Positions 8,967 to 53,783 of a DNA stretch of 60,921 nt are shown piece by piece (position 1 is the stretch's first letter; every line of letters starts with the position of its first letter). Origin of the DNA: Thermoanaerobaculales bacterium (GTDB lineage: Bacteria; Acidobacteriota; Thermoanaerobaculia; Thermoanaerobaculales; Sulfomarinibacteraceae). The stretch is from assembly GCA_021107705.1 (NCBI GenBank), contig JAIOSJ010000289.1, positions 1-60,921 of the forward strand, written 5' to 3'. Position numbers and translations under genes: made by a program. Below the pieces are notes generated by a model that worked only from the letters and a program-made list of their open reading frames with translations, had not been told where the DNA came from and did no database searches.

Positions 8967-9056
8967 GGAGAGGTGCCAGAGTGGTCGATCGGGGCGGTCT
9001 CGAAAACCGTTGACCTTTCACGAGGTCCAAGGGTTCGAATCCCTTCCTCTCCGCCA
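8967..9056 (+). tRNA. tRNA-Ser (anticodon CGA)
   Basis: Hand-folded cloverleaf: acceptor GGAGAGG/CCTCTCC, anticodon loop CU-CGA-AA, long variable arm, T-loop GGTTCGAATCC, encoded CCA. Confidence 0.9.
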
Positions 9057-9078: not shown

Positions 9079-9168
<90 letters not shown>

Positions 9169-9180
9169 GTGAGTCTTTCA

Positions 9181-9307
9181 GGGGCCCTTGGTGGAGTCCG
9201 GGCCCTGTGCATCGTCGCTCTTCGAATCGTGTCAGGCCCGGAAGGGAGCAGCACTAAGAGGAATTCCGGCGAGTGCCGCAGGGTACCCGGGCTCCATCAA
9301 GGGCCTC
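9181..9307 (+). ncRNA. ffs: signal recognition particle RNA (small bacterial 4.5S type)
   Basis: Contains GTCAGGCCCGGAAGGGAGCAGCA, matching the conserved helix-8 motif GUCAGGUCCGGAAGGAAGCAGC. The 5' GGGGCCCTTGGTGGAGTCCGGG pairs with the 3' CCCGGGCTCCATCAAGGGCCTC. Confidence 0.85.
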
Positions 9308-9316
9308 TTTCTACGC

Positions 9317-9416
9317 TACCCCGCATTTCTTATCAATGATCTGGTGCGGCCGGCGATGCACCATGCCCAGCGGCCCTTCGACGCCCTCGTGACGAAAGCC
9401 GGTGAAGTGCGGGCTA
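9317..9416 (+). repeat. short (about 100 nt) degenerate member of the intergenic inverted-repeat element family (copy C)
   Basis: TACCCCGCATTTC (5') and GAAGTGCGGGCTA (3') are near-complementary. They resemble the termini of the copies at 18.4 and 53.7 kb. Internal GCACCATGCCCAGCGG and GACGAAAGCC resemble blocks of those copies. Confidence 0.5.
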
Positions 9417-18363: not shown

Positions 18364-18549
18364 TTGGCCCGCACTTCTCACCGTGTTTCGTCGCGAGGGC
18401 TGCGAAGGGTAGTTAGATGTTGGGTTTTTCGGGAATCGGGCGACGCAGTCGTAGCAACGCTCCGTCGAGGAGAACGATTTGCGAAAAGCACGACAAATGG
18501 CTGCCATGCGCCGCCCGCAGCAGACAGCTGGTGAGAAGCGCGGGTTAGG
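18364..18549 (+). repeat. 186-nt intergenic inverted-repeat element (copy A)
   Basis: CCCGCACTTCTCACC (18368-18382) pairs with GGTGAGAAGCGCGGG (18530-18544). It is collinear with the 53.7 kb copy, needing one 1-nt indel, with about 120 identical positions by hand count. Confidence 0.8.
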
Positions 18550-18556
18550 AGGTCCT

Positions 18557-19783
18557 ATGAGCCTGGAAAAACTTAACGCCGCCTTGGTTGACGAGGTCCG
18601 GAATCTCGAGCAGGAGGGACGGGCGAAAACGGCCGAGAGAGTCATCGTGGGTTATGAACCGCCACAAGGAGATTTTGGGCCCCGCTACAGGCTCAAGGGC
18701 TCCGGCATTGGTTTCATCCGCATGAACTCCAACTCATACCTGTCTCTCTCCCACCACCCCGAGGTCATATCGGAGGCCGACAAGGCAACACATATCTTCG
18801 GCGTCGGACCGGGAGCAGTCCGCTTTATCGACGGCACCTTCAACTATCACGTGGCCCTCGAACGAGACATCGCCGAATTTGTCGACAAGCCGGCAGCGAA
18901 GATCTTCAATTCGGCCTACACCGCCAACCTCGGTCTTGCGCTTGCGATCGCCGGCCCCCGGACCTACTGGGTGGGCGATGCGCTGAACCACAACTCCATC
19001 ATCCGTGCCATGCGTATCGCCGGGGTTCCGCGTGAGAACAAGGCGATTTACAAGCACAACGACATGGATGACCTTGGGCGCTGTCTCGACCACATTCCAG
19101 CCGGTATGGACCGGGTGGTTGTGATCTTTGACGGGATCTTCTCCATGCGTGGCGACAACGCTCCGATGACCGAGATCCACCGTCGATGTGAGCCTCACCG
19201 AGATCGGTTCTCCAGTGGTCTGGTGACGGTCGTCGACGACAGCCATGGTCTCGGCGCCTATGGCGCTACAGGGCGCGGTACCGAAGATTTCTGCGGTACC
19301 AAAGCCGACATCACGGTGGGGACCTTCGGCAAGGCATTCGGCGTCAACGGCGGCTTCGTCGCCGCCAGCCCCGAGCTCACCGAGACGATCCGCCAGAAAG
19401 CCGACACCTACATCTACACCAATCCGCTGAGTGTTGCCGATTGTGCCGCGGCCTCGAAGGCCCTCGACATTGCCGACAGTCCTGCGGGCGCCGAGAGGCT
19501 CGAACATCTGCGTGCCATGACGGGTCTTTTTCGCCAAGGCATCTCGGACCTCGGCTGGGAATCTATCCCGGGACCCCACCCGATTGTGCCGTTGCTGGTC
19601 CGCGAGACCGAAAAGACCAAGAAACTCGTCCGGCATTTCTACGACCATGGTGTACTGGTCGTCGGTCTCGCCTTCCCGGTCGTCCCCAAGGGTGACGACA
19701 CGATTCGGGTACAGATCAATGCCGCCCACACGGAAGCAGATATCAAAACGGCCTTGGGCGTGCTGGAGAGTTTTTCAAGTTAG
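18557..19783 (+). CDS. PLP-dependent alpha-oxoamine synthase family (2-amino-3-ketobutyrate CoA ligase / 8-amino-7-oxononanoate synthase-like)
   Basis: ATG at 18557 after TAGGAGG. NSYLSLS, DDSHGLGAYGATGRG and the PLP-lysine context TFGKAFG. Confidence 0.85.
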   Translation: MSLEKLNAALVDEVRNLEQEGRAKTAERVIVGYEPPQGDFGPRYRLKGSGIGFIRMNSNSYLSLSHHPEVISEADKATHIFGVGPGAVRFIDGTFNYHVALERDIAEFVDKPAAKIFNSAYTANLGLALAIAGPRTYWVGDALNHNSIIRAMRIAGVPRENKAIYKHNDMDDLGRCLDHIPAGMDRVVVIFDGIFSMRGDNAPMTEIHRRCEPHRDRFSSGLVTVVDDSHGLGAYGATGRGTEDFCGTKADITVGTFGKAFGVNGGFVAASPELTETIRQKADTYIYTNPLSVADCAAASKALDIADSPAGAERLEHLRAMTGLFRQGISDLGWESIPGPHPIVPLLVRETEKTKKLVRHFYDHGVLVVGLAFPVVPKGDDTIRVQINAAHTEADIKTALGVLESFSS

Positions 19784-19968
19784 AAGCCCTGTGAACATGT
19801 CATCCGCGAAGCGAAAGGCTCGAGAGGCTGTGAGATGTGTCTTTCTCGCGAAGTCGTAACCCGAAGGCGTATCAAGAGATACGTTGAGGGTAACGACGAG
19901 CGAAAATCGCGTAGATTGCTGTGAATCGAGCATTGCAGCCGCGAGAGGCATTTTCACAGGGCTTTTAG
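19782..19968 (+). repeat. 187-nt intergenic inverted-repeat element (copy D, divergent subfamily)
   Basis: 19781-19795 pairs with 19953-19967 (14 Watson-Crick pairs plus 1 G.T). Same 90+97 nt layout as the 53.7 kb copy, with shared blocks GCTCGAGA, AGGCGTA, CGTTGAGG and CGAG..GCGAAA. Confidence 0.7.
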
Positions 19969-20531
19969 TCGTCAGGCAAACCCAGATCCGCCGCAATGCC
20001 TGCCATGGCGTCGCGAACAAATTCGATGTGCTCGTCCAGATCCACGCCGAGGTCCTCGACTCCCGAATACACGTCCTCGCGGTTGACACCCCGGGCAAAC
20101 GCCTTGTCTTTGAGTTTCTTCTTGACCGATTTGACCTTGACTTCGGCAATACTCTTGTCGGGACGCACCAGGGCACAGGCAGTCAGAAAACCGGAGAGTT
20201 CGTCCACGGCAAACAGGGTCTTGCGAATCGGCTCTTCGCGTGGAACCTCCATGTAGTCCGCATGAGACGCCACCGCGAGGACCCACTCCTCCGGCCAGCC
20301 GCGATCACGCAGAATCCTGCATCCCACGTGCAGGTGGGTCTGTTCGGTGTAGTTTTGCTCATAGTCGAAGTCGTGAATCAGGCCGACGACTCCCCACACA
20401 TCCTGATCGTCCCCGAAGCGAGCTGCATAAGCCCTCATCGCCGCCTCCACCGCCAAGGCGTGCTTCAACAAGCTCGGGTTGGTTGTAAACTCGTTCAACA
20501 AGGCCCATGCGTCGTCGCGTGTAGGTTGCAT
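19965..20531 (-). CDS. HD-domain (HDIG-like) phosphohydrolase
   Basis: ATG at 20531 after GGAGG. LLKHALAVEAAMRAYA...GLIHDFDY (H...HD motif). Confidence 0.8.
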   Translation of the reverse strand: MQPTRDDAWALLNEFTTNPSLLKHALAVEAAMRAYAARFGDDQDVWGVVGLIHDFDYEQNYTEQTHLHVGCRILRDRGWPEEWVLAVASHADYMEVPREEPIRKTLFAVDELSGFLTACALVRPDKSIAEVKVKSVKKKLKDKAFARGVNREDVYSGVEDLGVDLDEHIEFVRDAMAGIAADLGLPDD

Positions 20532-20568
20532 CTCAATCCTCCGATTTTCTTTAAGGCCGCCCTGGAGA

Positions 20569-22794
20569 TTATCCCCCCGGGTTCTTATGGGCTGTGGTTC
20601 CCGGTGACGGCTGGCGATAGGGCCGGCCCTGGCGATAGCTGCGTAATCTGGTTTCGACTTCCAGCGCAAACGGGTTCCTTCGGTCACCAAGTTCGGCCAG
20701 GGCCCTTTCGGCCGCGACCACCGCTTCGGAGTATCGTCCGGCCTCGGCATAGGCGGCCGCCAGAGTGTCCAGTGTCGAAGCCGAAGCGCCCGATGCAACG
20801 ACCCGTTCGGCCAATACCACAGCATACTCTCCGTCTCGAAGCTCCTGTTCCGGCGCCGTTGCCAGGAGCCATGCCAAATTGTTGGCGACCGACCGATGAC
20901 CGCCGTCAAGAGCCAACGCGGATTCATAGGCTACGACGACATCGCTGCGATTTCCCATCCGCTCCCGGCAGATTCCCACGTTCGCCCAGGAGTCGGCATT
21001 GGTCGGCGCCCACTTCAGGGCGGCCATGAAAGCCTCCTCGGCCTCGAACCACCGGCCCATTCGGGCCAAGACCAACCCGCTATTGGAACGTGCGACGGGA
21101 TCTTTGGGCTTGAGCGCCGCGGCCTGTGAGAAGTGGCGCAAGGCCCCCGCGAGATCACCACTCTCCAAGAGGACCTTCCCGACGCCGTTGTGAGCGGGTG
21201 CGTGGCTGGGATTCTCGGCCAACGCTCGACGAAAACTCTCGGCCGCTCGCTCCGGCTGAGCCTCGTATATCCATGCCAGACCTCGATCGTAGTACCACCG
21301 GGCCATCCCGACCTCCGCCGAAACAATTGGGATGTGAGTCAGACCCACCGCCACCACCAACGCTCCAAGCCATCCCCAGAAAGCCCGGCGCCGACGCTGA
21401 ATACTGCGCCCAACCTCGACCAGCGCCACCGCCGATCCCAACAACAAAAAGGGCAGAACCGGCACCCGGTAGAGCGAGGCAGCAGAAAACGGCAAGAACG
21501 ATACGAACCACGTCATGACGAACAGACCCAGCGCGACCAGGGTCTCCAACGTCCCCTTATCCCTCAAAAAGCCGGAATGAGCATCCCGGCGCCACCATAC
21601 CACCAGCACCGCCAGCCCCACCAAGGCGCCTCCCAGAGCAGTGGGAAATCCAACCGGTATCATCCTCAGCAACGGCGACTGGGCCCGGTCCGCACCGACA
21701 ACGTGATTGTGGGCGACCTCATCCGGCCCCCAGAAGAGGGCCGCTCGGCGTCCGATTAAGACCATCTCTCGACCGGGATTGTCGATCATCCACGCCAAGG
21801 CGCGACCACCGAAGATCTTCGAAGTCTCACCAAAGGTCAAATCGCGACCCAACTCCATTTCCATGCGGGCTATGAAGTCCGGAATCACCCATGGTGAACT
21901 CATAACACCGAGCCCACCGGCGCAGCTGGTCGAAAACCCGGCGGCATCTTCGTTGTTGGCATGATAGAGCGTCAGGCCCCCATTGGCCGAAACCAGGGCG
22001 AAGGTGCCTTCGACTCTCCAATTCCGGAGAGCCGTCGGCGTCAAAACCACCGCCCCCACGACCGCCGCCGCAACTGCCATCGGCCAGAATCGATTCGTCA
22101 ATCGTCGTCGGCGAACGACCCACCATCCCCACACAACGAGTACCGGCGCAAAGAGCAGGGCATTCGGACGAACCAACGCCAACAGGCCGAGGACCGCCCC
22201 CGCCGAAGCAGCCCAAGGCCAATTCGGCTGCTTCGCCAGTCGAAAGAGCAGGACTGTCAGAACCAAAGACAGGAGCACCAACAGCCAGGCGCCGTTGAGT
22301 CCTCCCTGGAAGTAGAGCAGAGGCCAATTGAGGACCATCAGCGCCGCCCACACCACCCCGACCACCGGCCCCAAGAGGCGGCGGCCGATCAGCCATGCCA
22401 GGACGACACTGACCAGTCCGAGACCCATTTGGACCACCCGGAGACCCAGGGCCTCGCCCCCGACCAGACGGAAGATCCCCGCCAGAACGAAGGCATAACC
22501 CGGAGGCCGGCTGTAAGCGGTCGTTCGAATGCCGGGATCCCGGCCCCATGCGTCGGGGGGGAGAGCCCAATCAGCGGTGGCCAGCCCCCTGGCCCAGTAG
22601 AGGTTGAAGCCTTCGTCCACCGGCGGATGATTCAATTCCGGCATCTCACGGAGTTCGCCGAGGTAAAGACCCCGAAGGATGACGCCGATCACCAGAACCA
22701 ACAAGATGGCCATCAGTTCCCATCGGCTCGGTCGAAGGAACCGGTCCGCCCTTGTGGCGCGATCGTGACCCGAACCTGTCCACGAGAATTTCAT
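20569..22794 (-). CDS. GT39/ArnT-like membrane glycosyltransferase fused to C-terminal TPR repeats
   Basis: More than 10 TM helices with an N-terminal DEGFNLYWA-type loop. The C-terminal roughly 230 aa are TPR units (AESFRRALAENPSHAPAHNGVG..., ALKPKDPVARSN...). Confidence 0.8.
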   Translation of the reverse strand: MKFSWTGSGHDRATRADRFLRPSRWELMAILLVLVIGVILRGLYLGELREMPELNHPPVDEGFNLYWARGLATADWALPPDAWGRDPGIRTTAYSRPPGYAFVLAGIFRLVGGEALGLRVVQMGLGLVSVVLAWLIGRRLLGPVVGVVWAALMVLNWPLLYFQGGLNGAWLLVLLSLVLTVLLFRLAKQPNWPWAASAGAVLGLLALVRPNALLFAPVLVVWGWWVVRRRRLTNRFWPMAVAAAVVGAVVLTPTALRNWRVEGTFALVSANGGLTLYHANNEDAAGFSTSCAGGLGVMSSPWVIPDFIARMEMELGRDLTFGETSKIFGGRALAWMIDNPGREMVLIGRRAALFWGPDEVAHNHVVGADRAQSPLLRMIPVGFPTALGGALVGLAVLVVWWRRDAHSGFLRDKGTLETLVALGLFVMTWFVSFLPFSAASLYRVPVLPFLLLGSAVALVEVGRSIQRRRRAFWGWLGALVVAVGLTHIPIVSAEVGMARWYYDRGLAWIYEAQPERAAESFRRALAENPSHAPAHNGVGKVLLESGDLAGALRHFSQAAALKPKDPVARSNSGLVLARMGRWFEAEEAFMAALKWAPTNADSWANVGICRERMGNRSDVVVAYESALALDGGHRSVANNLAWLLATAPEQELRDGEYAVVLAERVVASGASASTLDTLAAAYAEAGRYSEAVVAAERALAELGDRRNPFALEVETRLRSYRQGRPYRQPSPGTTAHKNPGG

Positions 22795-28722: not shown

Positions 28723-28928
28723 CCTAGAGGCCCGGCCGGAAACCCCCTCGCGGCTGCAAATCGCGAATGAGGCGACGCCCACTCTGGGGCCGGCGACCCA
28801 GAGCGGGTCCCTATCTGTGTTTCCGTAAGTCATTGAAGTAGAACGACTACGCCTGCGGCCTTCCGGAAGCACATCGCGCACCTCCCCATAATTTCGCTTC
28901 GCAAGGGGTTTTCGGCCGGGTCTCTAGG
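28723..28928 (-). repeat. roughly 206-nt intergenic inverted-repeat element (copy E, inverted orientation)
   Basis: CCTAGAGGCCCGGCCGGAAACCCCC (28723-28747) versus GGGGTTTTCGGCCGGGTCTCTAGG (28905-28928). The minus strand carries GCGAAGCGAAA, AGGCGTA and TGCAGCCGCGAG in the same order as copy D. Confidence 0.7.
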
Positions 28929-38670: not shown

Positions 38671-41454
38671 TCATTTGATTTTGAACGGCACGCGGACCGG
38701 AATCCACATGCGAACCTTGACACCATGTTTGGTCGCGGCTTTGTAGCGCCACTTGCTCACCGCCGATTCCGCGGCCTTCTCGAAACCAACTCCAGGTCGA
38801 GTGGACTTTACCACTTTCACCTGCTCGACGACACCATCGATTCCGAGCAAGATTTCAAGGTTCACAGTACCCTGCGCTTGCAACTTGAGCGCCATCGGTG
38901 GGTACGACGGCGTTTTCTGGCTTATCGGTACGGGAAGAACCACCCCGCGGTCACCCGGCTGGACGATGTCGCCTTCCCTCACCGAAGGTGTGGGCGTGGG
39001 TGGAATCGGCGTCGGTGTAGGCGTGGGTGGAATCGGCGTCGGCGTAGGCGGTACGACCGTCGGCTCAGGCGCCACTTCCTCCGGCTCGGGCGTCGGTTCG
39101 GGCGTCGGCTCAGGCGTCGGCGTTGGGGGTATCGGCGTCGGTGTCGGGAAATCCTGTTGGAGGCGCTCCCGAATTTCTTCGGTCTTTTCTTCGACCATCT
39201 GCGCCGCCGCCAGGGCGGCAGCCTCTGCCATCTCTTCTTCGGTCAAAAGGCCGGCCCCGGTATCGGGAGTTCCCGGTTCTTCAACATCCGCGGAAACGGC
39301 CGGCAGGGGCGTCGGGGTTGTCGGCGGACCTTCGCCGCCACCACCGCCCAAAATTGCATAGAGCCCGACGGCAACCACGACCAAGGCCGCGAAACCGATC
39401 AACAACCATTTTACTCCCGACTTGCTTTTCTCCGGTTCTTCTTGTGGAGCTTCCTCGACGATGACCTCAGGTTCAGGCGGCGACTCGGGCTCAACCGGCA
39501 CTTCGGACTCAACCGGCACCTCTGGCTCAACCGGTACCTCGGGTTGGGCTTCCTCAGGAATATCAACGGCCGGCACAGCATCACTTTCCTCGACCTTGGG
39601 GGGTTCGGGCAGGATCGCTCCTGCCTTCTTGCCTGTCTTGCGCCCCTCGATAGGCGTAATGACTTCGCCGGCAACCAGTTCCTGTATGAATCGCGCAATG
39701 GTAATTGAATCAACGGCCCAACCATGTTTTCGCTGTGCCTTTTCCAGGTCTCGGTGGAAGTTCCGAGCGGACTGATAGCGCTTTTCTTTGTCCGAAGCGA
39801 GGGCTTTCAAAACGATTTTTTCTACGTCTTGAGGCACATCGGGGTTGATCTTGGAGGGCGACTTGACCTCTGGATTGCGAACTTGTTCGAGAATCGACAG
39901 TTCAGAATCACCGGCAAAGAGCTTGGCGCCGGTCAACATCTCAAACAACACCAAACCAAGAGAAAAGATATCCGACCGGTGGTCGATGCTCTTGCCCCAT
40001 GCCTGCTCGGGAGACATGTATTGGAGCTTGCCCTTGAGAGCGCCGGCGCGAGTGTGAGATGCCTTCGAGGCCGCTTTCGCAATTCCGAAGTCGCACAGCT
40101 TGATGTCACCGTCGAGGGAGATCAGCACATTCTGTGGGGACACGTCACGGTGAACCAGCCCGAGATCACGATTCTCGAAGTCGCGTTTACGGTGCGCATA
40201 GTCCAAGGCCGAAGCCAACAGATTCGTGATGTGGACGCAGATCGGAGTCGGCAGGATGATATCGCGGTCACGGCAACTCTTGAGCAAGGAACGCAGATCC
40301 CGGCCCTCGATATATTCCATCGCGATGTAGTAGGACCGATCGATCTTGCCGAGGTCATAGATGTGAATAATGTTGTTGTGGTTCAGCTGTGCGGCCAGCT
40401 TCGCCTCGTCAATAAACATTGTGACGAATTCATCGTTATCGGTCAGGTGAGGCAAGATTCGCTTGATGGCTACGGTCTTTTGAAAGCCCTCCATACCCAT
40501 CATACGAGCCTTGTGAACCTCCGCCATGCCGCCTGTCGCAATGTGGTCCTGCAGTACGTATTGGCCAAACTGAGACCCCTCGGCAACCGGTTCTTCAGCT
40601 TTGGGAATCGGCGTCTGTTCCGGCGGCGGTGGTGGTGCGGCCTTGGGTGGCGGAGCGTCGGCGGGCGTTTCGACCAAGCCTTTCACCTCCGCCTTCGCCT
40701 CCTTGGCCTTCCTACGAACCGGCTGAATATCGAGGCCTGCCAAGGTCTGGGAGAGAATGGCATCGACATCGGTCTCGGTCGGAGGCGCAACCCTCTTGAT
40801 CGGACGGACCGTTTGACTCTCCTTCAAGACCTCCGACAACACATCATCCGCCGCACCTGTGGTCGGGGCTTTCTTTTCGAGGGGCTGGGACGTCGGAGGG
40901 GCATCGTCGGTCGACGTGGCCTTTTCTTCATCGCCGACATGGTCGTCGTCTTCGACATCCGACAGGATATCTCCGAAGAGTTCGTCGGAAGTCAGGCTCT
41001 TGGCTTCGCCTTCAAGACCCGCACCTCGTCGGAGAGCATCCAACGTGGCCCGGGGAATGGCCTGGGTCGCTGCGGGGTCTTTTGAGCGTTCAACAAGGTC
41101 ATGGACCCGTTGCACCAACGCCTCTCCCGAAAAGGGTCTTTCGAGGATGTCCTGGGCGCCATACTGCTTGGCATCCTCCGGAGAATCTCCTCCACGATAA
41201 CCCGACATCAAAATAAGAATCGACGTCGATTGCAACCCTGCCCGCGCACGCAACTGTGTAATGGCATCCTCGATCTTAATCCTCGGCAGAACCGAGGTGA
41301 TGACCACAACCTTTGGTTCGAAAGTGGCACAGCAGTCCACGGCGGCATCGACATCAGCAACAATCTCGAGCCGATACTCCGAACTCTCCAACGCCTTTTG
41401 AACCCGTTCTATGTATCGCGGCTCGTACTCAATGAGAAGGATATTCGCGCTCAT
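38671..41454 (-). CDS. pseudo-receiver / Ser-Thr protein kinase / TM / Pro-rich linker / TonB C-terminal domain fusion protein
   Basis: Hanks kinase motifs GGMAEVHKA...AIK, HRDVSPQNVL, DFGIAKA and SPEQ. TM helix WLLIGFAALVVVAVGLYAIL. (PTPxP)n linker. C-terminal TonB_C-like domain of about 85 aa. The ORF can extend to the GTG at 41490. Confidence 0.85.
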   Translation of the reverse strand: MSANILLIEYEPRYIERVQKALESSEYRLEIVADVDAAVDCCATFEPKVVVITSVLPRIKIEDAITQLRARAGLQSTSILILMSGYRGGDSPEDAKQYGAQDILERPFSGEALVQRVHDLVERSKDPAATQAIPRATLDALRRGAGLEGEAKSLTSDELFGDILSDVEDDDHVGDEEKATSTDDAPPTSQPLEKKAPTTGAADDVLSEVLKESQTVRPIKRVAPPTETDVDAILSQTLAGLDIQPVRRKAKEAKAEVKGLVETPADAPPPKAAPPPPPEQTPIPKAEEPVAEGSQFGQYVLQDHIATGGMAEVHKARMMGMEGFQKTVAIKRILPHLTDNDEFVTMFIDEAKLAAQLNHNNIIHIYDLGKIDRSYYIAMEYIEGRDLRSLLKSCRDRDIILPTPICVHITNLLASALDYAHRKRDFENRDLGLVHRDVSPQNVLISLDGDIKLCDFGIAKAASKASHTRAGALKGKLQYMSPEQAWGKSIDHRSDIFSLGLVLFEMLTGAKLFAGDSELSILEQVRNPEVKSPSKINPDVPQDVEKIVLKALASDKEKRYQSARNFHRDLEKAQRKHGWAVDSITIARFIQELVAGEVITPIEGRKTGKKAGAILPEPPKVEESDAVPAVDIPEEAQPEVPVEPEVPVESEVPVEPESPPEPEVIVEEAPQEEPEKSKSGVKWLLIGFAALVVVAVGLYAILGGGGGEGPPTTPTPLPAVSADVEEPGTPDTGAGLLTEEEMAEAAALAAAQMVEEKTEEIRERLQQDFPTPTPIPPTPTPEPTPEPTPEPEEVAPEPTVVPPTPTPIPPTPTPTPIPPTPTPSVREGDIVQPGDRGVVLPVPISQKTPSYPPMALKLQAQGTVNLEILLGIDGVVEQVKVVKSTRPGVGFEKAAESAVSKWRYKAATKHGVKVRMWIPVRVPFKIK

Positions 41455-53596: not shown

Positions 53597-53783
53597 CTAG
53601 CCCGCACTTCTCACCAGTTTTCGTAGCGAGATGCTCGAGACGCCGTGCCATGCTCGGTTTTTCGTGGCTTGGCCAACGTAGGCGTACTTGACAGTCCGTT
53701 GAGGCGGGCGAGTTGCGAAAGGCACGGCAGGGTACAGTGTATCGGGTGTCGTAGTAGATCACTGGTGAGAAGTGCGGGCTAGG
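53597..53783 (+). repeat. 187-nt intergenic inverted-repeat element (copy B, best-preserved)
   Basis: CTAGCCCGCACTTCTCACCAGT (53597-53618) is the exact reverse complement of ACTGGTGAGAAGTGCGGGCTAG (53761-53782). Confidence 0.85.

Follow-up and report, generated by a model that had tools for sequence, protein, structure and literature searches.

A strand-specific fold maintained by compensatory substitutions in a foldback miniature inverted-repeat transposable element of Thermoanaerobaculales and other bacteria

A stretch of 60,921 nucleotides from a Thermoanaerobaculales bacterium (assembly GCA_021107705.1, contig JAIOSJ010000289.1; the whole stretch is called the window here) carries several copies of a repeat with a hairpin at its centre, and it raises the question of whether selection has acted on a fold of this repeat and not only on its sequence, and if so, on which strand and in what kind of object. 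An original prediction had proposed such a fold from base changes in two helices of three copies termed A, B and D. We found that A, B and D all belong to a non-autonomous foldback MITE (short for miniature inverted-repeat transposable element) that is free of open reading frames (ORFs), and that the hairpins are its tip and inner helices. The pairing is kept by hundreds of independent compensatory substitutions across many lineages, in genomes labelled as four phyla, and the data require a fold of one defined single strand, either DNA or RNA. The best explanation is a foldback MITE whose single-strand fold is selected in the propagating source copies, to which we give a probability of about 0.75.

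The copies A (18368–18544, + strand, 177 nt) and B (53601–53778, + strand, 178 nt) are full-length members of the main type. Copy D (19784–19964, + strand, 181 nt) represents another type, termed D, which has a body related to the main type and unrelated termini (AAGCCCTGTGAA and TTCACAGGGCTT). Copy B lies within a CTAG duplication (53597–53600 and 53779–53782) and copy D within a TTAG duplication (19780–19783 and 19965–19968), and copy A is flanked by TTGG (18364–18367) and TTAG (18545–18548). The hairpin sequences quoted for the three copies were all found in place. The apical hairpin of copy D reads GGCGTATC-AAGA-GATACGTT (19866–19885) and has six Watson-Crick and two G.T pairs; that of copy B reads GGCGTACT-TGAC-AGTCCGTT (53681–53700) with one T.C mismatch; and that of copy A reads GTCGTAGC-AAC-GCTCCGTC (18448–18466) with two mismatches, T.T and T.C. 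Thus, the hairpin exists in all three copies, and the mismatch in copy B was missing from its first description. As had been described, the two loop-proximal pairs have changed on both sides between A, B and D, the sole indel between A and B falls in the apical loop, and the flanking helices ATCG/CGAT (A), GTCG/CGAC (D) and CTTG/CGAG (B) are present and used in the minimum-energy folds. The closing helices of A and B, of D and of a further foldback copy, E, are likewise unrelated in sequence, yet self-complementary in each copy. Complementarity of terminal repeats is expected from transposase binding, and the closing helix is the weakest evidence for a fold. The fold itself stands, and the object that carries it is a MITE with terminal inverted repeats as its “closing helix”, not a family of RNA genes.

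Selection on the fold was assessed with a covariance model (R1), to which each of eight subfamilies contributed a single real copy. The model comprises 57 pairs over 176 positions and incorporates the apical hairpin described above. The whole element forms one rod-like hairpin, made of the 57 modelled pairs and a variable sub-apical region. When 44 copies from this genome were aligned, 91.9% of the cells were paired, 35 of the 57 pairs had changed on both sides and the covariation score was 0.425. One copy each from 26 related genomes gave 94.0% pairing, 46 pairs changed on both sides and a score of 0.525, and the corresponding values for 39 copies from a motif scan of all species were 92.6%, 41 pairs and 0.500. 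Sliding the partners by 1–3 columns reduced these values in all sets to 33–47% pairing, 17–27 pairs and scores of 0.04–0.13, and none of 500 shuffles reached the observed values. When 52 real copies were aligned with plain MAFFT, RNAalifold predicted 28 pairs, of which 22 had changed on both sides. Furthermore, on a tree of 109 copies with columns reconstructed by parsimony, which is approximate because the tree was built from the same columns, 230 double changes, each within one branch, replaced a standard pair by a different one; they were distributed over 50 of the 57 pairs, and six slid controls gave 7–25 such changes. These results strongly support the proposal that selection acted on the fold and not on sequence alone, and the pairing of the genomic copies under the covariance model was far beyond chance. 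Two or three clonal subfamilies, the alternative that had been raised against the fold, fail as an explanation, as the compensation comes from at least 27 clusters in this genome and dozens of lineages elsewhere.

The apical hairpin taken alone showed the same behaviour. In the 26 related genomes, seven of its eight pairs had changed on both sides with 96.6% of the cells paired, and the tree contained 20 double changes that kept its pairs. An alternative apical hairpin, CTYGAC-AGTMC-GTYGAG, was chosen by RNAalifold on one alignment and was rejected; it has only C/T wobble changes and is impossible in copy D and in subfamily 8, unlike the originally described hairpin, which covaries. A column-pair dynamic programme run on the apical third returned only noise. 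The register of the sub-apical region, which includes the flanking 4-bp helix, shifts from one subfamily to another, and the region lies outside R1, yet it pairs. Its duplex had a mean energy of −11.7 kcal/mol versus −8.2 kcal/mol with shuffled partners, and 85% of the copies were below their own shuffle mean.

The strand on which this fold is kept could be read from the wobble pairs. The first description had cautioned that the G.T and A.C positions of the closing helices favour no consistent strand, which does not hold for the whole element: the ratio of G.T to A.C in the modelled pairs was 340:44 in this genome, favouring the written strand of A, B and D, 191:27 in related genomes and 256:53 in other phyla. 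Fourteen pair columns had at least 20% G.T in this genome and none had at least 20% A.C. On the tree, 236 changes from Watson-Crick pairs were to G.T and 74 to A.C, with 90 versus 20 on internal branches, and the slid controls were nearly 1:1. A single terminal-repeat position opposes the bias, being C.A in 18 of the 44 copies, and the earlier caveat originated from it. Because about 13% of the pairs are G.T and A.C oppositions are rare, a good hairpin is formed on one strand only. Accordingly, all 81 main-type copies examined folded better on the sense strand (means of −92.0 versus −69.6 kcal/mol), and the same was seen for 7/7 D-type copies and for 14 of 15 oriented copies of the E type, in which the sense strand is motif-defined. 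The eight subfamily consensuses formed the same rod at −88 to −114 kcal/mol on the A/B/D strand versus −64 to −94 kcal/mol on the complement. R1 separated the strands with 105–180 bits forward versus 20–81 bits in reverse. In the window, R1 scored copy A at 138.1 bits on the + and 45.3 bits on the − strand (folds of −94.7 and −77.8 kcal/mol on sense and antisense, respectively), copy B at 154.8 and 56.2 bits (−100.8 and −69.0 kcal/mol), and copy D at 69.8 bits on the + strand (−87.1 and −69.0 kcal/mol).

A cruciform or a duplex site would penalise G.T and A.C equally, and the form under selection is therefore a single strand, and a particular one of the two. The possibility that the symmetry serves double-stranded DNA only, through binding of the same protein to both arms or through a cruciform without any single-strand role, is supported by the terminal 15–17 bp, which do behave in this way, by the wholesale differences between the three terminus types with complementarity kept, and by the C.A position. 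However, the arms of the body have diverged by 30–40% between subfamilies with pairing kept, which sequence-specific binding cannot explain, and G.T exceeds A.C 5–8-fold in three independent sets as well as on the internal branches. The symmetric cruciform, an option of the original prediction, is disfavoured by the same excess, and we consider a purely double-stranded role very unlikely. The other way to obtain compensation without selection on a fold is a mechanical regeneration of complementarity, by fold-back synthesis or by mismatch correction within the hairpin. Whole-length palindromy and the many same-branch double changes fit such copying of one arm from the other, but copying would give Watson-Crick pairs, whereas the 14 columns rich in G.T alternate between G.T, G-C and A-T across lineages, and asymmetric loops and bulges are conserved instead of being erased. 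Compensation as such a by-product appears to us highly improbable.

The nature of the folding object was determined from its copies in this genome, a 4.32-Mb draft in 444 contigs, in which the better strand was kept for each locus. There were 207 loci, of which 112 span the full model and are mostly 181–184 nt long including flanks, and R1 matched at least 128. The nhmmer model matched each copy on both strands (155 versus 114 bits), indicating that the whole element is an imperfect palindrome. The main type has the ends CCCG...CGGG and an exact length of 175–178 nt. Its terminal inverted repeats CCCGCACTTCTCACC and GGTGAGAAGTGCGGG are present, helix 1 is 95–96% paired in the three sets, and the terminus GCCCGCACTTCTCACC has 361 genomic matches at up to three mismatches. 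With 21 hits at contig ends, the repeat breaks the assembly. The flanks are NTAN and mostly YTAR. The first base of the flanking 4-mer was identical on both sides in 52 of 65 cases (26 expected) and the fourth in 47 of 65 (32 expected), and the base just outside agreed in 18 of 65, which is the chance level. Since the outer bases are duplicated and the next base is at chance, this is a 4-bp target-site duplication, and neither a TA duplication nor an extension of the inverted repeat. A search of this genome for empty sites with the flanks of copies from 26 relatives gave no orthologous junctions, the flanks being too diverged. The element is small, non-coding and dispersed, and it has subfamilies as well as truncated and nested copies, as expected of a MITE.

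When 90 full copies were clustered at 17% divergence, 27 clusters were obtained, eight of them with at least three members and with 10–14% divergence within clusters. Between the subfamily consensuses, the terminal repeats are conserved and the interior differs by 30–40%. The length variants include internal deletions of 50–100 nt; one such main-type remnant of ~95–100 nt was detected in the window by nhmmer at 9320–9413 on the − strand (R1, 48.7 bits). A subfamily of 229–233 nt with ~9 copies (such as C106:4532–4760, C170:11607–11835 and C194:2763–2991 of this genome) has 50 conserved nucleotides, CGCTGGCACCGCTTTGCGGCTTGCGTCTCTCCGCCTCCGGCTCCGAGGT..., inserted into the 5′ arm, and the 3′ arm contains nothing equivalent. 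Variants of ~250–300 nt (C222:3280–3580, C329:5720–5968, C390:8138–8387 and C427:26987–27235) have a ~70-nt module of three hairpins just 3′ of the apical hairpin without a target duplication, and all three hairpins of this module differ by compensatory changes between A-type and B-type hosts. In addition, a further repeat, GGTGAGAAGCTTCCCACGAGCCGCCCTCGGCTCGACCCATCGGAAGGAAACTCGAGG..., found at ~18 loci of this genome and often at contig ends (C319:7623, C32:6155, C47:17537 and C253:68 are examples), replaces or interrupts the right terminus of the MITE. It has inverted ends of its own, AGAAGCTTCCCACG and CGGGGAAGCTTCT, with variable cargo, and perhaps represents a nested element, or else a chimeric family.

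The occurrence of the family was followed into other genomes. Of 41 relatives searched with R1, 32 have it, with copy numbers that reach more than 60 per genome, and all 24 other tested genomes of the same taxonomic family are among these carriers. A wider search, in which one genome per species was scanned for a motif and then with R1, detected full-length copies in Acidobacteriota-labelled genomes of Thermoanaerobaculia, Holophagae, Vicinamibacterales and Bryobacterales, in genomes labelled Gemmatimonadota (Gemmatimonadetes) and Nitrospirota (Nitrospira), and in Gammaproteobacteria-labelled genomes of Ectothiorhodospiraceae, Chromatiaceae, Sedimenticola and Woeseiaceae. Several of these genomes have copies on multiple contigs, and some copies are on closed chromosomes.

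The anatomy and distribution also bear on the possibility that the copies are genes for structured non-coding RNAs acting in trans that merely look repetitive. Extensive covariation, a defined strand, conserved unpaired purines and covarying inserted modules are what such a family would show. Against it are the terminal inverted repeats and 4-bp duplications, the truncated and nested copies, a number above 100 with 10–14% divergence within subfamilies and neutral decay, the patchy occurrence across phyla, and an end-to-end fold that excludes an internal promoter. An Rfam search of the window at gathering scores matched only the signal recognition particle (SRP) RNA and two tRNAs, and a search of the elements and their inserted modules at E ≤ 1 matched no family, with only sub-threshold microRNA-hairpin noise. 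We regard an RNA gene family as scarcely credible and the foldback MITE as the preferred reading.

Within this MITE, the unpaired bases best conserved among the 109 copies are located immediately interior to the terminal repeats, in internal loops that are asymmetric. They are T20, G23, T24, G28 and A29 of the 5′ arm (...TTCGTnGCGAG...) and G149, C150, A151 and A154 of the 3′ arm (...CGCAGCAGA...), a few of the unpaired purines being near-invariant, and A79 and G100 are conserved and unpaired near the tip. By inference, G28-A29 facing G149-(C)-A151 might pair as tandem G.A. Three unrelated sets of termini, all flanked by YTAR, carry related hairpin bodies on the same strand. Besides the main type, these are the D type, with termini AAGCCCTGTG..., seven genomic copies and R1 scores of 60–80 bits, and the E type, with termini AGGCCCGGCCGGAAAC... 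and 16 paired genomic copies of 161 nt or ~195 nt, which R1 does not match. The E type is represented in the window by copy E (28728–28923, − strand, 196 nt), a foldback MITE with AGGCCCGGCCGGAAAC... at its termini and CTAG duplicated on both sides. This copy shows no strand asymmetry (−95.7 versus −95.2 kcal/mol) and has the motifs GCGAAGCGAAA and GCAGCCGCGAG in common with the D type. A rod hairpin with invariant loops that acts as a portable single-strand cis module, placed on at least three terminus sets and spread across phyla, is an attractive but tentative extension, which we would hold to be possible rather than probable.

Whether the fold matters to the resident copies was examined from their recent mutations. 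The singleton mutation rate within subfamilies was 0.0216 per site in paired columns versus 0.0228 in unpaired ones; among private mutations, 62 transversions and 37 transitions break pairs and 55 transitions lead to wobbles, with no departure from a 1:1 ratio (p = 0.08). This pattern indicated that resident copies decay nearly neutrally. We infer that the compensation took place in the source copies from which the subfamilies arose, and that the fold is selected only in the propagating lineage. The positions of the copies relative to genes were also scored. Among 99 copies, 34 lie across the stop codon of an ORF that has 80 codons or more, as is expected of a YTAR target, which contains TAA or TAG; the sense strand ran with the overlapped gene 18 times and against it 19 times. 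Neutral decay and random orientation together argue against a host RNA function of individual copies. In such a function, the hairpin would act in the mRNA of the neighbouring gene as a 3′-end stabiliser, a terminator or an RNase III site, and roles of this kind, as for REP, ERIC and Correia, are documented for other MITEs (PMC3184786). The exact placement of those 34 copies on stop codons, the location of copy D between convergent stop codons, a G.U tolerance typical of RNA and a strand difference that is much larger with RNA energies all speak for it. But half of the copies would put the poor folder into the mRNA, private mutations of resident copies are equal in stems and loops and mostly break pairs, and the placement on stop codons follows from the target. 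A role at the host level is thus improbable in our view.

Selection of the fold in propagating source copies, the preferred reading, can be cast as a mechanism. The fold would be required in cis, or would confer a strong advantage, when the element itself spreads and would not serve a host function, and the tolerance of G.T together with the defined strand would make a single-stranded state the selected form. If this state is the folded + strand as single-stranded DNA (ssDNA), it might be exposed at the replication fork or on cell entry, for example; the terminal repeats would then pair as one duplex “end” and the conserved loops would be shown to a transposase or a host factor. Alternatively, a read-through RNA might act on the transposition machinery. 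Since the fold reaches from one terminal base to the other, an internal promoter could not make it as RNA, and this argument together with random gene orientation and selection tied to copying favours ssDNA. Within the best explanation, we therefore lean towards folded + strand ssDNA, at a little below even odds, and take the read-through RNA to be possible but rather unlikely.

Several observations weigh against this explanation. The strand difference is 2–5 kcal/mol with DNA energy parameters versus 17–32 kcal/mol with RNA parameters (with none for E). A model of ssDNA linked to replication predicts an orientation bias, and none was detected: adjacent copies lay on the same strand in 15 and on opposite strands in 11 cases, a link to GC skew was absent (p ~0.2), and a hand count in a relative assembled in 10 contigs found 14 of 24 neighbouring copies on the same strand. 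The replication-strand hypothesis was rejected on this lack of regional co-orientation and of a GC-skew link. The taxonomic labels of metagenome-assembled genomes may be wrong. Counting was done on alignments that had been fitted to R1, a limit mitigated by the slid controls, the tree controls and the structure-blind RNAalifold result. The enzymology adds further points of this kind. An autonomous partner was sought in this genome among termini paired 0.8–15 kb apart, and only ordinary genes were found between them; the same search in the relative G005 (10 contigs) gave no full-length element. This genome has a single transposase gene of the IS1380 family, on contig C388, which stops at the apparent right end of the element (CGATACTCCGCACCC... 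/ ...GGTGGATTATCG), and the left end of that element abuts CTAG; it was rejected as the partner because its ends differ from those of the MITE. No IS1380-family gene was found in G005, G011 or G017, among which are two near-complete relatives with more than 50 MITE copies, some of them identically scored. A closed MITE-bearing chromosome (G043) has five IS1380-family copies, with CTAG on both sides in all four that were read and with the ends CCCCAATAATTC... (CCCCAA...) and CCGCACCTATTC... (CCGCAC...); only ~5 terminal bases, CC[CG]CA, are common to these and the MITE. We also know of no single-stranded or folded substrate for DDE transposases of the IS1380 type. Orphan MITEs are common, and a missing partner therefore does not exclude membership in this class.

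An IS1380-type (piggyBac-related) DDE enzyme acting in trans is nevertheless the best candidate for the transposase, with somewhat better than even chances in our estimate, and both the 4-bp YTAR duplication and the CC...GG termini point to it. The MITE and the IS1380 copies of G043 agree in target, in duplication length (4 bp, CTAG/YTAR) and in the first bases CC, and in nothing more. The IS1380 copies of G041 were rejected, having unrelated ends and a different duplication. An IS5-type enzyme, likewise YTAR-targeting, may also be considered; IS5-type termini begin with GG or GA, and those of the MITE begin with CCC. The only PF01609 match of G005, a DDE_Tnp_1 gene, belongs to another insertion sequence with the unrelated ends CTAGTGTCCATCCA, and G011 has no PF01609 match. 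A derivation from IS630/Tc1-mariner was rejected, since the duplication is 4 bp and not TA and the genome has no DDE_3 (PF13358) match. Y1/HUH transposases were rejected as well, because Y1_Tnp counts (0–11) do not track the copy number of the MITE, and a relative that carries at least 61 copies has no such gene. As a separate observation, the MITE-rich and nearly closed genomes G005 and G011 contain 9–11 ORFs each of ~330 amino acids whose Y1_Tnp (HUH) domains are weak to moderate. Some of these ORFs are clustered (G005 C6:657–663 kb), and no link to the MITE was seen.

The surroundings of the copies in the window were also recorded. Copy D exactly fills the interval between two ORFs that converge on it (18479–19783, + strand; 19965–20927, − strand), and each TTAG of its duplication provides the stop codon of one ORF (TAG; TAA on the − strand). 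An AGGAGG Shine-Dalgarno-like sequence is present 2–3 nt after the end of copy A and is followed by the ATG of the downstream ORF (18545–18560). The ORF that starts after copy A is the one that ends at copy D and is thus bracketed by two copies on the same strand. The remnant at 9320–9413 (− strand) is directly downstream of the SRP RNA gene (9196–9295), and two tRNA genes (8967–9053 and 9079–9165) precede that gene. Elsewhere, GGC/GTC-rich direct repeats with 27-nt and 18-nt periods, in register, occupy 38979–39147 and 39464–39535, and probably encode a repetitive low-complexity protein segment.

The hairpins of MITEs are commonly dismissed as a side effect of their inverted repeats. Here, the fold itself is selected on one strand and only in transposing copies, across three terminus types and four labelled phyla, and it looks like a component of the mechanism of transposition or of the way in which this is controlled. 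If the portable single-strand module considered above is real, DDE transposons of the IS1380/piggyBac-like class with a 4-bp duplication would have an obligatory or strongly favoured single-stranded step, in which either DNA folded back on itself is the substrate or RNA is a cofactor; to our knowledge, no single-stranded step has been known for this class. The finding bears on how non-autonomous elements out-compete their autonomous parents and on whether transposons with terminal inverted repeats and target-site duplications use folded single strands. On the practical side, it provides a calibrated covariance model and a clear anatomy for the annotation of an abundant repeat by which assemblies are fragmented, in Acidobacteriota as in other bacteria from the environment, and which occupies many stop codons.

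The family was compared with known systems. It resembles the foldback MITEs Correia/nemis (Neisseria), ERIC, Chunjie (Geobacter) and Nezha (cyanobacteria) in its size class of 100–250 bp, inverted repeats, target duplications, intergenic location, high copy number and very stable predicted hairpins, and Chunjie elements are 178–235 bp with about −98 to −130 kcal/mol (PMC3184786). Those families differ in their termini and in having duplications of TA or 9 bp, and their hairpins have generally been treated as a consequence of inverted repeats. A limited literature search returned no report of strand-specific covariation of a MITE kept across phyla and no description of the present family. With the IS1380 family, as read on the G043 copies, it has in common the 4-bp duplication at CTAG/YTAR and termini starting with CC, but the likeness ends at ~5 terminal bases; no IS1380 element with the termini of the MITE was found, and several MITE-rich genomes are without that family. 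Integron attC sites and the ends of IS200/IS605 are recombination sites read in the form of one folded DNA strand, and they resemble the MITE in that structure prevails over sequence, the strand is a defined one and a few unpaired bases are invariant. Those sites are shorter, lack a target duplication and are used by tyrosine or HUH enzymes, none of which was linked to the MITE here.

The closest precedents are REPINs and bcr1. REPINs are inverted doublets of REP sequences that form hairpins, are mobilised by RAYT and show compensatory changes, with an ssDNA intermediate proposed (PMC3116915). They are similar to the present family as miniature mobile DNA with a hairpin as the selected unit, and differ in having no target-site duplication and a single-copy HUH (Y1) transposase, unlike the classical terminal repeats and 4-bp duplication of the MITE. 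Membership in REP/REPIN-RAYT was rejected because the target duplication is present and there is no Y1 association. The bcr1 repeat of the Bacillus cereus group is a ~155-bp non-autonomous repeat with a predicted single-strand structure kept by compensatory changes (Okstad 2004; Klevan 2007; reviewed in PMC3184786). Both bcr1 and the MITE are non-autonomous, with short target duplications and a compensated fold that has lost its stability in some copies. However, bcr1 has a 5-bp duplication and a shape of two stem-loops, is confined to one genus group and was reported to be transcribed, whereas the MITE described here has a 4-bp YTAR duplication and a single rod, occurs in several phyla and has a quantified strand asymmetry. 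Neither bcr1 nor REPINs combine terminal repeats, a 4-bp duplication, a quantified strand asymmetry and cross-phylum conservation, as this MITE family does.

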